Shown piece by piece: positions 47-4,325 of a stretch of 64,000 bases of DNA. The notes beneath the pieces are model-generated. The model searched no databases. It worked only from the letters and a program-made list of their open reading frames with translations, and was not told the DNA's origin. The DNA comes from Thermoprotei archaeon. Lineage in GTDB: Archaea > Thermoproteota > Thermoprotei > Gearchaeales > WAQG01. Made by a program: the position numbers and the translations under genes. Position 1 is the stretch's first letter. Each line of letters opens with the position of its first letter. Where the stretch lies: the NCBI GenBank assembly GCA_049976445.1, contig JBMFIF010000002.1:5115-69114 (forward strand), read 5' to 3'.

Positions 47-322
47 TTATTTTGTTTTTTGTGTTTTTTGTGCTGTGAGTGTTTTGTGTTTTGTGAGGTA
101 CCAGTATCTTAGGGCTATTGTTTTTCTGTTGTTTGTTGTTTTTGTTGGTTCTATGATTACTTTTCTTGGTATTTCTGTCGAGAGTCTTGTCCTGCATCTT
201 GGGCATCGACCGTTAATACTGTACCTCTTAATCACATCAACGGGACTGATAGCCTCCTCAGTATCATAATACAAAAGATAACCACAAGCCCTACACACAA
301 CACTCATCGGCATCCAACACAC
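47..322 (-). CDS. small zinc-ribbon protein, function unknown
   Basis: Two CxxC pairs (CRACG ... CPRCR) about 30 residues apart. The K/T-rich C-terminal tail is read through an (A)nCAC low-complexity tract, so the true 3' end is uncertain. Several Met codons near the N-terminus leave the start uncertain too. Confidence 0.35.
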   Translation of the reverse strand: MCWMPMSVVCRACGYLLYYDTEEAISPVDVIKRYSINGRCPRCRTRLSTEIPRKVIIEPTKTTNNRKTIALRYWYLTKHKTLTAQKTQKTK

Positions 323-496: not shown

Positions 497-1420
497 TTAT
501 ACTAGTCTAGGGCAAACGATGTATAATGGGCATGAAGAACAATATTTAACTTTATCACGGCACCAATATTTTCCAACAAGTTCTAATGCGGAGAGTATTT
601 TTGGGTTTTCAGGGAAAAGTTTGTCGCTTATTTTTTTAACTATTGTTGATATTTTCTCTTTATCCTGTATTTTTGCGTCTTCTTGTGTTATGAAGCCAAG
701 TTCTGTTAATGGTCTTAGTAGGGAATTGGTGATTGGTATTCTGATTTCATTGTGAACGTTCTCCCATAGCCCGTAGACCATTGTTATCTGCCAGATTGTC
801 ATGTCTGCAAATTCTGAATCGCAACTGGGTAGTGTGCTTAATGCTTGGCGAAGTATGTTGAGTGCATCTTTTTGATTTTTGGGTTTTCCATTTGAAATGA
901 TATTATTTATTATTTGCTTTTTTTCATTATATTCTAGATCTGTGTATTGGTTGATATCATCTTTTATTGTATTTACGAGATTCCATGAAAAGTCTATTAA
1001 ATCTTCGACATTACTATTTATTATCCATTTGGCAATTATGCTTAGTGTTTTGGATACTTTTTTAATCTGAGTTTCGTTCATGTTTTTTGCTTGTTTAATT
1101 GTTGAGAATGCTAAAAATACGTGTTCCTCATCTGTATATGATTCGATTGATGATGCAATATCGCCTATCTTATTCATTAATTTCCATGCAATGTGAAGTG
1201 TTTTATTTTTCATGATGTTATTTTGATGGTCTAGAAGGTTCACGAGCATTATTCCGAAGATTAAAGATTCTTTTGATAAGGAAATTTTATTAATACCTAT
1301 TTTACTCATTCGTTTCTCTATTCTATCGTTATTCTTCTCGTTCAACTCATATAATCTTTCTCTGAGATAACTGATGGTTCCATTTTTGATGTTAATCATT
1401 CCTTTGTCTGTTAGAAACAT
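497..1420 (-). CDS. divergent HhH-GPD / endonuclease III-like protein with Fe-S cluster loop, probably non-catalytic
   Basis: The C-terminus CRDKVKYCSSCPLYIVC fits the Cx6Cx2Cx5C [4Fe-4S] cluster loop of EndoIII/MutY. LSTLPSCDSEFADM looks like a degenerate helix-hairpin-helix (L..LPGIG.WTA). IPITNSLLRPLTELG aligns with the P-V/I-D..R..LG segment but has no Asp at the catalytic position. Confidence 0.4.
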   Translation of the reverse strand: MFLTDKGMINIKNGTISYLRERLYELNEKNNDRIEKRMSKIGINKISLSKESLIFGIMLVNLLDHQNNIMKNKTLHIAWKLMNKIGDIASSIESYTDEEHVFLAFSTIKQAKNMNETQIKKVSKTLSIIAKWIINSNVEDLIDFSWNLVNTIKDDINQYTDLEYNEKKQIINNIISNGKPKNQKDALNILRQALSTLPSCDSEFADMTIWQITMVYGLWENVHNEIRIPITNSLLRPLTELGFITQEDAKIQDKEKISTIVKKISDKLFPENPKILSALELVGKYWCRDKVKYCSSCPLYIVCPRLV

Positions 1421-1495
1421 AATTAAATCTAAATATAAACCTTCCTGATAATCTAGGATTTTAATCTCAGATTTTGGAAAGTATGAAAGTATAAT

Positions 1496-2638
1496 TTAGA
1501 GTGCTTTATGTTGTTCAAACCATTTTTGATAGCGCTCTATCATATCTTTAGTTATGCTTGGCTTTCTGTTTTTGATCACAATTTTAAAATCTTCCATCGT
1601 AATGCTTCTAGGCTCATTTCTGTTATTATGTTCAAAGAATTCTTCGATAACCTTTATGTGAGCATCTCTACACACATCTAGAATATCGCTAGCTGAGTAA
1701 CCCTCAGTCATTTTAGCTAACTCCTCAAGATCTATGGAAGGGTCTAGTTTAAGTTTTGATGTATAGAATTTAAATAACTCAATCCTAGACTTAAAATCTG
1801 GAGGAGGTACTAGTATTCTTTTTTGGAATCGTCTTATAAAAGCTTCATCTAACATCCAAGGTTTATTAGTAGTTCCGATAACAAATATGAGCCGATCTCT
1901 ATCTTTTTCCATTAATCCATCCATTTCTTTGAGTAGTTGTGTGCGCATTCTAGTCTCACCACCAACTTCCTGAAAATGTATTGATGCTAACGCGTCGACC
2001 TCATCTATAAGAATTATTACTGGCTTGTTCTGTGATTCTAGTCTCCTTGCTTCTTTGAATACTCTAGCAATATTTTTTTCTGATTCGCCAAGCCATTTTG
2101 ACATAACATTAGAACTATCAATAAGCATTACTATAGCGTTAATTTCATTTGCAACAGCTGCCATTAACATAGTCTTACCACAACCAGGTGGACCAAAGAG
2201 AAGAATACCCCTTGGCCAACCCAACGGAAAAAGATCACGTCTCTTTATTGGATACACTATTGAATGAATTATTGCTCTCTTTGCATCTTCAAGACCGATT
2301 ATATCCTCCCATCTAATATTCGGCCTGCTCCCCAAGATATACTCTGCATCAATGTTAGATCTTTCCTTTTCACTACTATAATAATAGTTACCAATTTCTT
2401 CTGGTTGATCTTCTAATAATTTTTCAAGCTCTTCGACTTTATTTCTATACATCATTATGTAACGTGCATAGTTCCTATTCATTATGCTATCTGGATATAA
2501 CTCAATTAATTTCGATAGTGCATCTATAGCTCTTCTATAATATCTAATTGCTTCACTATATTGTTTGTTATTTTCATATTGGATAGCTTTAGTGGCATTT
2601 TCCCGTGCATAATCTAACAGTTCTTTACTCGCATACAT
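1496..2638 (-). CDS. cdvC: CdvC / Vps4 AAA+ ATPase
   Basis: N-terminal MIT-like three-helix region (YARENATKAIQYENNKQYSEAIRYYRRAID...). Single AAA cassette with Walker A GPPGCGKT and Walker B VIILIDEVD. Sits directly downstream of ESCRT-III genes. Confidence 0.9.
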   Translation of the reverse strand: MYASKELLDYARENATKAIQYENNKQYSEAIRYYRRAIDALSKLIELYPDSIMNRNYARYIMMYRNKVEELEKLLEDQPEEIGNYYYSSEKERSNIDAEYILGSRPNIRWEDIIGLEDAKRAIIHSIVYPIKRRDLFPLGWPRGILLFGPPGCGKTMLMAAVANEINAIVMLIDSSNVMSKWLGESEKNIARVFKEARRLESQNKPVIILIDEVDALASIHFQEVGGETRMRTQLLKEMDGLMEKDRDRLIFVIGTTNKPWMLDEAFIRRFQKRILVPPPDFKSRIELFKFYTSKLKLDPSIDLEELAKMTEGYSASDILDVCRDAHIKVIEEFFEHNNRNEPRSITMEDFKIVIKNRKPSITKDMIERYQKWFEQHKAL

Positions 2639-2662: not shown

Positions 2663-3511
2663 TTACTCAGGTTTCAACTTACCGGCACGACTTAAACTGT
2701 CTATTGCCCTCCTTACATCATCAGGAGAAACGCCTAAATATCTAGCACAGTCCATTACATTAAGCTCACCATTATGTTCTAAAACCCACAAATAAACTTT
2801 ATCTTCCAGAGAGAGAAGTTTCTCAGTTCTCACGTTTATAACTTTATTTTGGGTACTTGAACTTTTATCAGACCTTGAAAGCGGGCCCTCTCCTATACTA
2901 ATAGACTCAGCAACCTTTTGAACTTTATCGGTAATCTTCTCTTTAGAAGCTGTAGGAGGTTCAGGTAATAAAGACCTTTCTTTTATCATAGTACCTGCAA
3001 CTGCAGCGGCTTCTTTCAGGATCTTATTCAGATCTGCATCACTTGTATCTAAGGGTAATGTTTCAAATGTATCTGGATATTTTGCACCTAACTGTTCAAG
3101 TACAGCGTTTGATAAGACATTAAGATCGTTTTCAAGTTCTGGTGCGATTTGTGGTATTACAGTACGAACATCGCTTATAAGACCTTGTAATGAGGAAAGT
3201 AGACTAGCAGCATCACCTAACTCAATAATTGTCTCAAGTCGTAACAGTAGTTGCTCTAATGAAATACTTGCACTTTCAACAGATTTAACTAGCTTCCTTA
3301 ATTCAGCTACCTCATTAGCATATATTGTAGCATATTGAGCATTTCCTGATGCTTGAGCTGTTACAACCTTGTCAAACATCTCTTTCTCTTTTTTCCTCAA
3401 CCTGTATTTGGCTAATTCTAAACGTGAAACATAACTTCTAAGTTTTATTATAGTATCATTAATTATATCTTTAAGATCACGCCTTCTTTTTAAAAAATTT
3501 ATTCTAACCAT
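2663..3511 (-). CDS. cdvB: CdvB, an ESCRT-III (Snf7-like) protein with C-terminal winged helix
   Basis: Coiled-coil Snf7-like core. Proline-rich LLPEPPTAS segment resembles the MIM2 motif that binds the Vps4 MIT domain. C-terminal wH-like LWVLEHNGELNVMDCARYLGVSPDDVRRAIDSLSRAGKL. AGGAG SD upstream of the ATG. Confidence 0.75.
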   Translation of the reverse strand: MVRINFLKRRRDLKDIINDTIIKLRSYVSRLELAKYRLRKKEKEMFDKVVTAQASGNAQYATIYANEVAELRKLVKSVESASISLEQLLLRLETIIELGDAASLLSSLQGLISDVRTVIPQIAPELENDLNVLSNAVLEQLGAKYPDTFETLPLDTSDADLNKILKEAAAVAGTMIKERSLLPEPPTASKEKITDKVQKVAESISIGEGPLSRSDKSSSTQNKVINVRTEKLLSLEDKVYLWVLEHNGELNVMDCARYLGVSPDDVRRAIDSLSRAGKLKPE

Positions 3512-3686: not shown

Positions 3687-4325
3687 TTATGTAGTTGAGG
3701 GGCCTTTCTCTTTTTCTGGACTTGGAAGCTCTGAAAACTCTTTGCTTCTACTTTCAGCAACAGCCTGTGCTTCTTTGAGTATTTTTTCAGCTTCTTCACT
3801 CTGTGGACCGAAGGCTCCAAAGTGAACGCCTGAGATCTCTCCAGCTTCAGTGAGTACAGATGTTAGTGCTTCGCCTATGTCGCCTAGTTCTCTCTCAGCT
3901 TCAGGTAATATGCCTATTAATTGTCTCTTAACAGCGTTCACAACACCTATTGCAGGTTCGATTGCAGCAACAACATCACCTATCTCTTTAATCGTACCAA
4001 GTCTTAATATTACGGATTCTAGTGCTATCTTACTCTGAAGTACTACTTTGGCAACTTTTCTTACTCCAGCTACTTCGTTAGCATACATGTATGCACGATC
4101 AGAATCATTCTTTATGTACGCGTTAACCAATTGCTCGAAAAGTCTGCGATCTCGCTCTTGTAAACGGTGATAAAGTTGGTCGAGTTTCATAGTTTGAGTT
4201 TCAAGTTTTCTTGTAACTTGGTCGATTTTATTCTTTAACGGTGGTGATGGATATACTGCATCCCTTATTCTTCCCGAAAGGGGCTCTTTCGGCTCCCTTT
4301 CCCATCTTCTTGCGAAGTTTGCCAT
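3687..4325 (-). CDS. ESCRT-III (CdvB paralog) without winged helix
   Basis: Helical pattern is collinear with the neighbouring CdvB (YANEVAGVRKVAKVV vs YANEVAELRKLVKSV; ILRLGTIKEIGD vs LLRLETIIELGD). Short Pro-rich C-terminal tail ELPSPEKEKGP. Confidence 0.65.
   Translation of the reverse strand: MANFARRWEREPKEPLSGRIRDAVYPSPPLKNKIDQVTRKLETQTMKLDQLYHRLQERDRRLFEQLVNAYIKNDSDRAYMYANEVAGVRKVAKVVLQSKIALESVILRLGTIKEIGDVVAAIEPAIGVVNAVKRQLIGILPEAERELGDIGEALTSVLTEAGEISGVHFGAFGPQSEEAEKILKEAQAVAESRSKEFSELPSPEKEKGPSTT

Follow-up and report, generated by a model that had tools for sequence, protein, structure and literature searches.

A predicted EndoIII-fold iron-sulfur protein with threonine at the catalytic aspartate position, encoded beside cdvC in a Thermoprotei archaeon

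We examined a 64,000-nucleotide (64-kb) stretch of a Thermoprotei archaeon genome (contig JBMFIF010000002.1, positions 5,115 to 69,114; hereafter the window) and found that the gene adjoining the cell-division gene cdvC encodes a protein, here called X, which we assign with high confidence to the EndoIII-fold iron-sulfur (Fe-S) proteins. A fuller reading, which we hold at about even confidence, is that X is functional, has its own transcription unit and belongs to an EndoIII/MutY-fold family that had not been described before, with an HhH-GPD (HhH, helix-hairpin-helix) core and a [4Fe-4S] cluster loop. The open reading frame (ORF) 497..1420 on the minus strand was confirmed and gives 307 amino acids as its longest reading. 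The ATG at 1420 is not conserved and sits between a TATA-like box and the predicted transcription start, and all five close homologues share the start at M8 of the longest ORF (ATG 1397-1399, MINIKN...). We therefore take X to be a protein of 300 amino acids with its stop codon at 497-499, and residue numbers below count from this conserved start.

497..1399, minus strand: coding sequence of protein X, a divergent, predicted EndoIII-fold protein of 300 amino acids
1400..1420, minus strand: seven extra codons (MFLTDKG) of the longest ORF, whose ATG occurs in no relative; probably untranslated

The C-terminus of X reads CRDKVKYCSSCPLYIVC followed by PRLV (terminal letters of the ORF, CRDKVKYCSSCPLYIVCPRLV), and fits the spacing Cx6Cx2Cx5C. 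A loop of the EndoIII/MutY type had been proposed here in the initial annotation, and it is indeed present and unique to this site, as translating the window in all six frames yields a single instance of the pattern, with 0.02 instances expected from shuffled sequences. Across 25 family members, at 17-83% identity, the four cysteines never vary; the loop also stays basic in the family, and that of X aligns with the cluster loops of EndoIII, MutY and ROS1. In EndoIII and MutY, the basic Fe-S cluster loop is the element that binds the DNA backbone. X is thus predicted to carry a [4Fe-4S] cluster and to bind DNA.

512..562, minus strand: Fe-S cluster loop C280-x6-C287-x2-C290-x5-C296, with basic residues R281, K283 and K285

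The homology of X to HhH-GPD proteins is visible at the profile level only. Searches of Pfam, NCBIfam and, by phmmer, the PDB with the single X sequence gave nothing significant, the best real signal being MutY at E ~0.6, and a profile of the six close homologues had no match in the PDB. In contrast, a family profile of 22-25 sequences matched EndoIII structures 8a5g/4uob at E ~2e-4 (best 1.7e-4) and 1orn/1p59 at 5e-4 to 1e-3, ROS1 at E ~1e-3 and MutY at 0.01. An hhalign comparison of the family with Escherichia coli Nth gave E 7.7e-6 from the HhH element through the cluster loop, in a register that agrees with the profile match to 2abk. The HMMER alignment to Geobacillus EndoIII reaches back to the 'GLYxxKA' helix. 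The HhH-GPD assignment made earlier thus found no match with the Pfam model PF00730 itself and a significant one when the family profile was compared with EndoIII in the PDB.

Structural modelling agreed with the profiles. An AlphaFold model built from six sequences was poor (predicted local distance difference test, pLDDT, 67), and its structural matches were still glycosylases only. The AlphaFold (AF2) model built from 25 sequences reached pLDDT 90 and a predicted template-modelling score (pTM) of 0.88, and in a Foldseek search its top 34 matches were all EndoIII, MutY or MIG, so that the expected similarity to the HhH-GPD fold was found. Structure comparisons of this model gave the following scores and aligned residues.

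DrEndoIII-3 (8a5g): 14.1, 210 of 238
E. coli EndoIII (2abk): 13.5, 192 of 211
NTHL1: 12.3, 196
MutY: 11.9, 194-195
MIG: 11.2, 199

In the model, the protein is all-alpha and folds into two domains with the HhH element at their interface, and the similarity to EndoIII spans the whole fold. The N-terminal 200 residues, which at first sight had seemed unrecognisable, are the rest of the EndoIII fold together with ~90 extra residues, including a long N-terminal helix. X shares with EndoIII (DrEndoIII-3, 8a5g/4uob; E. coli, 2abk) the C-terminal Cx6Cx2Cx5C loop with basic residues, the LP......A[ND] frame of the HhH element, an 'LYxxKA'-like helix and an Arg five residues after the catalytic position. 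It differs in its low identity (10-16%), in the lack of a Pfam HhH-GPD match, in the ~90 extra residues, and in the active site, where the GhG hairpin is replaced, Lys120 has become Glu and Asp138 has become Thr.

The register of the active site came from two independent alignments (HMMER and hhalign), in which LPSCDS-E-FAD of X corresponds to LPGVGR-K-TAN of EndoIII, and IPI-T-NSLLR to IAV-D-THIFR. The motifs PSCDSEF and IPITNS are both present in X as originally quoted, and the two replacements read from them were borne out: the hairpin glycines are replaced in PSCDSEF, and the Thr of IPITNS stands at EndoIII Asp138.

776..874, minus strand: HhH-like element, residues 176-208, with hairpin LPSCDS in place of LPGVG; model helices 176-188 and 195-208, aligned to LPGVGRKTAN of EndoIII
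812..814, minus strand: codon of Glu196, at the EndoIII Lys120 position by the alignment register
728..730, minus strand: codon of Thr224, at the position of the catalytic Asp (EndoIII D138) by the alignment register
713..715, minus strand: codon of Arg229, five residues after 224, equivalent to EndoIII R143 and invariant in the Thr-clade alignment (A3)

By our own count, Arg229 is also equivalent to R149 of MutY and to R157 of Sis-HhH-GPD, an active glycosylase discussed below. Across 25 sequences, the catalytic column holds Asp in 15, Thr in nine and Glu in one. The nine Thr sequences, namely the six members of the window clade together with P0007, P0008 and P0009, keep the Thr without exception down to 27% identity. 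As this Thr clade forms a single group in a neighbour-joining tree, the change from Asp to Thr probably happened once, in the clade of the window. In the Lys120 column, seven of the nine Thr-clade members carry Glu, and none of the other 16 does; in Asp-type members, the residue is Arg, Gln, Lys, Tyr or Ala. The four with Lys (P0016, P0017, P0021 and P0023) thereby possess the full EndoIII pair of Lys and Asp. The second hairpin Gly is missing from almost the whole family, including members that retain the Asp, and its loss is for that reason not a sign of inactivation in X. MutY and MIG resemble X in fold, in the cluster loop and in having no Lys nucleophile; however, both keep the catalytic Asp, and X has no counterpart of the MutY C-terminal domain.

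A precedent for such an active site is Sis-HhH-GPD (SiRe_0278) of Saccharolobus islandicus, an active bifunctional glycosylase on 1-methyladenine and methyl methanesulfonate (MMS) damage, both in vitro and in vivo (PMC11754123, Nucleic Acids Research (NAR) 2025). Its Glu134 corresponds to Lys120 of EndoIII and its Ser152 to the catalytic Asp, and the cluster cysteines are C203/210/213/219; the E134A substitution kills activity, S152A does not, and R157 contributes (PMC11754123). Both X and Sis-HhH-GPD are HhH-GPD proteins from Crenarchaea whose cluster loops space their four cysteines identically. In both, a Glu replaces Lys120 and a hydroxyl residue (Ser in Sis-HhH-GPD, Thr in X) replaces the Asp, followed, by our count, five residues later by an Arg. 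This likeness is drawn from the published residues. Sis-HhH-GPD groups with MagIII, MpgII and Mja-UDG and has a recognisable HhH-GPD motif (PMC11754123), whereas X is ~80 residues longer and is closer in structure to EndoIII/MutY; MagIII, the one representative of the Sis-HhH-GPD group with a solved structure among the matches, is less similar.

Several observations weigh against X being a functional member of this family. Neither X nor any of 18 distant relatives matched PF00730 at E<=1; the cluster binding, DNA binding and activity of X are all inferred; and, within the Thr clade, the Glu at the Lys120 position is missing from P0008 and stands one residue earlier in P0009. The canonical GhG hairpin has given way to LPSCDS, Asp has changed to Thr and Lys to Glu, and DrEndoIII3, the best match in both structure and sequence, has so far shown no detectable EndoIII activity (PMC10523315). 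These last points are what would be expected of a catalytically dead 'reader', a protein that would use its retained EndoIII scaffold and Fe-S loop to bind lesions or structures, or as a redox-sensing DNA binder, without cleaving the N-glycosidic bond. X also diverges faster than most of its neighbours, with 65% identity in locus L002 as compared with 70-94% for five neighbours, and 28% in L012 as compared with 57% for CdvC. However, a Thr that is invariant over deep divergence, together with a Glu gained at the other catalytic position, points to remodelling and not to decay, and the hairpin is lost family-wide, even in members with Lys and Asp. E. coli TAG, a zinc-binding enzyme of the HhH superfamily without an Fe-S loop, lacks the catalytic Asp and is nevertheless active, on a labile cationic base, although it was not among the matches to X. 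Sis-HhH-GPD, in turn, shows that a Glu/Ser active site works (PMC11754123). We therefore regard a dead reader as the chief alternative, possible but rather unlikely.

Given the invariant Thr, the clade-specific Glu and the Sis-HhH-GPD precedent, we consider a remodelled active site at least as likely as a dead enzyme, and the earlier label of 'pseudo-glycosylase' is weakened by the same three points (the Thr being fixed over the clade, the Glu gained in seven of nine members, and the Glu/Ser precedent in PMC11754123). That X is still catalytic through Glu196 is a tentative proposal from the analysis as a whole, which we would place a little short of an even chance. In such an enzyme, the cluster loop and the HhH-like element would hold the DNA backbone, and the pocket at the junction of the two domains would receive the flipped-out damaged base. 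If the protein is still catalytic, it would rely on Glu196 and not on an Asp, in the manner of E134 of Sis-HhH-GPD, and the likeliest substrates would be labile bases, for example alkylated ones.

Another explanation is that X does not act on DNA at all and is an HhH-GPD-fold hydrolase or binder of a free nucleotide or an RNA nucleoside, as are Qng1/DUF2419. The family-wide absence of the hairpin glycines is consistent with this, as are the isoelectric points (pI) of 5.7-9.8 across the family, a range that gives no clear signal on DNA binding, and the presence in two relatives of a fused alpha/alpha-toroid (prenyltransferase/SQHop-cyclase-like) domain, an unusual partner for a DNA-repair protein. 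On the other hand, the best matches are cluster-bearing DNA glycosylases, and the basic loop that serves for backbone binding in EndoIII and MutY is conserved here. The family also includes the combinations Lys+Asp, Tyr+Asp and Arg+Asp, the first typical of EndoIII and the second of MIG. A role away from DNA thus appears improbable, and we prefer to regard X as a DNA-binding member of the EndoIII/MutY fold.

The X family is rare and has no model in Pfam or NCBIfam. A word-indexed homologue search with X returned six proteins only, 65-100% identical, one of which is labelled as coming from a 'Thermoprotei archaeon' metagenome-assembled genome (MAG). When a profile of the close homologues was compared with 1.84 billion cluster representatives, 19 proteins were found at E<=1e-3, 18 of them new and 17-30% identical to X, and repeating the word-indexed search with a 22-sequence alignment added one further protein. 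The few members that carry names are hypothetical proteins of uncultured Thermoprotei MAGs, and one locus belongs to a 'Candidatus Geoarchaeota' MAG. Two motifs of the Thr clade, scanned over 185,579 GTDB species representatives, gave one locus; the scan with motifs of the Thr clade (alignment A3) gave three loci in metagenomes, all of the window clade, and zero in viral sequences. No Pfam or NCBIfam match of the family exceeded the threshold, and only sub-threshold matches to EndIII_4Fe-2S and DUF2400 were seen. Those to DUF2400 (PF09674, uncharacterised) involve Asp-type members over the region of the catalytic position (E 0.004-0.18) and never reach the gathering score; X itself is unmatched, and our literature search on the function of DUF2400 found nothing useful.

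Some Asp-type members have unusual architectures or neighbours. P0017 (592 amino acids) and P0023 (552 amino acids) carry the toroid, built of SQHop_cyclase/prenyltransferase-like repeats, at their N-termini; both have Asp at the catalytic position and Lys at K120, and their cysteines depart from the usual pattern, being spaced Cx5Cx7Cx5C and Cx5Cx10Cx5C. Upstream of P0014 (7001-7963), a 499-residue ORF (L021:5498-6997) holds in its C-terminal half a member of the X family, that is, a tandem paralogue (tblastn E 9e-15). In the P0020/P0025 lineage (L007/L011: 7463-8041 and 2359-2964), a winged-helix (TrmB/ArsR-like) gene lies upstream of the X-family gene and overlaps it, and genes for HSP20 and an Lhr-type helicase follow. 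Such neighbours hint that Asp-type members may act in a repair or stress setting.

In the window, the genes around X follow, in the order of minus-strand transcription, as the cdvB1/B2-like gene, cdvB, cdvC, X and a zinc-ribbon gene. The identity of cdvC rests on the Pfam domains MIT, AAA, AAA_lid_3 and Vps4_C and on the NCBIfam model cell_div_CdvC (E 6e-151).

3687..4325, minus strand: cdvB1/B2-like ESCRT-III paralogue, 212 amino acids, NCBIfam E 5e-56; context
2663..3511, minus strand: cdvB, ESCRT-III with a C-terminal winged helix; context
1496..2638, minus strand: cdvC, Vps4-like AAA ATPase, upstream neighbour of X, identified by Pfam and NCBIfam
1431..1445, minus strand: element GGAAGGTTTATATTT resembling a transcription factor B recognition element (BRE) and TATA box (TATA 1432-1439), 32 nucleotides upstream of the conserved ATG; putative X promoter
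47..322, minus strand: C4 zinc-ribbon protein of ~90 amino acids, 174 nucleotides downstream of X; context

The spacer between cdvC and X is 96 nucleotides when counted from the conserved start; the distance of 75 nucleotides given previously holds for the longest ORF only. The BRE/TATA-like element within it occurs once in the window. A box of the form GGAA[AG]GTTTATATTT is invariant in the cdvC-X spacer of all five relatives, ~32-36 nucleotides upstream of the conserved ATG, in spacers of 62-96 nucleotides in which the DNA around the box diverges or is partly deleted. Its position matches that of the TATA-like boxes found 30-41 nucleotides upstream of the start codons of other first genes in the window. 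Conversely, cdvB and cdvC are separated by 24 nucleotides (2639-2662) with a GAAGGAG (GGAG) Shine-Dalgarno-like sequence and probably form one operon. Because the box is invariant, is positioned like those of other first genes and has no parallel at the Shine-Dalgarno-led cdvB-cdvC junction, X is likely to be its own transcription unit, with its own BRE/TATA promoter and a short leader. The absence of a clear oligo-T terminator after cdvC speaks against this independence, as it would permit read-through into X. The co-transcription of X with the division genes that had been supposed at the outset is nevertheless disfavoured by the 96-nucleotide spacer with its invariant box and by two lineages in which X is convergent with cdvC.

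The adjacency to cdvC noted at the outset proved to be conserved in relatives, within the Thr clade only. In the window clade, the gene order is constant (M48 protease - cdvB' - cdvB - cdvC - X - Zn ribbon - IF-2B(-)), and the wider syntenic block reads aspS-M48-cdvB'-(cdvA)-cdvB-cdvC-X-Zn ribbon-IF-2B. In all three Thr-clade lineages with readable contigs, X adjoins cdvC, down to 27-29% identity, the more distant ones being the Geoarchaeota lineage of P0007 (28% identical; L012-L014) and the lineage of P0009 (L016). X is convergent with cdvC in both of these, the stop codons overlapping by 4 nucleotides in L012 and being separated by a gap of 23 nucleotides in L016, and in L012-L014 the zinc-ribbon and IF-2B genes retain their orientation, X alone having been inverted in place. 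None of five Asp-type loci examined has the X-family gene adjoining cdvB or cdvC. Since the unrelated genes aspS, M48, Zn ribbon and IF-2B are conserved in the same block, the adjacency says little about function; the place of X beside cdvC is inherited synteny and not an operon.

The initial annotation had raised the idea that X is a DNA-sensing accessory of Cdv-mediated division. In its fullest form, an Asp-less, EndoIII-derived Fe-S protein would have become established next to cdvC in three or more deep lineages of the Thermoprotei, where it would work with CdvB/CdvC in detecting DNA at the division site, for example by giving a signal when damaged or trapped DNA lies in the division plane, and its Asp-type relatives would be linked to a CdvA-like protein. 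That every Thr-clade locus with readable flanks, in three lineages, has X adjoining cdvC, and that the five Asp-type loci lie away from cdvB/cdvC, would fit such a role. A weak lead was also offered by a PRC-barrel and coiled-coil protein of CdvA-like architecture, encoded directly downstream of and on the same strand as two Asp-type members, P0010 and P0012 (255-269 amino acids; L018:4158-4925 and L019:8083-8892), with sub-threshold matches to PRC-barrel (E 0.001) and the CdvA coiled coil (E 0.016). Its identity as a CdvA was not substantiated, as hhalign against true CdvAs gave E 0.1-0.17, there was no NCBIfam CdvA match and no homologue was named. X, moreover, has a conserved putative promoter of its own and is convergent with cdvC in two lineages; the surrounding unrelated genes are equally conserved; and the very rare X family, with 19 clusters in 1.84 billion representatives and one GTDB locus, is missing from almost all archaea that use Cdv. 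Our literature search found no paper linking CdvB/CdvC to a glycosylase neighbour. Neither operon structure nor distribution thus supports the accessory idea, and a role of X in cell division appears very improbable.

The cdv cluster of the window consists of a cdvB-like gene, cdvB and cdvC, the first two being 175 nucleotides apart, and contains no cdvA; tblastn over the window with the CdvAs of the Geoarchaeota and P0009 lineages found none elsewhere. In those two lineages, cdvA lies between cdvB and the cdvB-like gene (L012:10897-11526 and L016:3065-3703, respectively). The zinc-ribbon protein downstream of X has a Lys/Thr-rich tail and could be assigned to no family, and its position is kept in all lineages at 32-78% identity. 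The other window genes that were checked are ordinary chromosomal genes (IleRS, AspRS, Topo VI B, PFOR, GH3 and two radical-SAM proteins), the G+C content is 33.8%, and an Rfam scan of the whole 64 kb found no family at the gathering score and detected no tRNA or rRNA.

Taken together, these results add to the cluster-bearing glycosylases of the EndoIII/MutY type an unannotated, deeply divergent branch, all members of which are labelled 'hypothetical'. The conserved neighbourhood of cdvC serves here as a caution, as it reflects block synteny and not an operon. The family itself has switched naturally from an active site with Asp, alongside Lys, Arg, Gln or Tyr, to one with Thr and Glu, a change that parallels the Asp-less alkylation-repair glycosylase of Saccharolobus, and the family thus provides a test case for HhH-GPD enzymes that work without the 'invariant' Asp. 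Because Crenarchaea have no known homologue of AlkA or AlkB (PMC11754123), X-type proteins are candidates for the missing alkylation repair of uncultured Thermoprotei.

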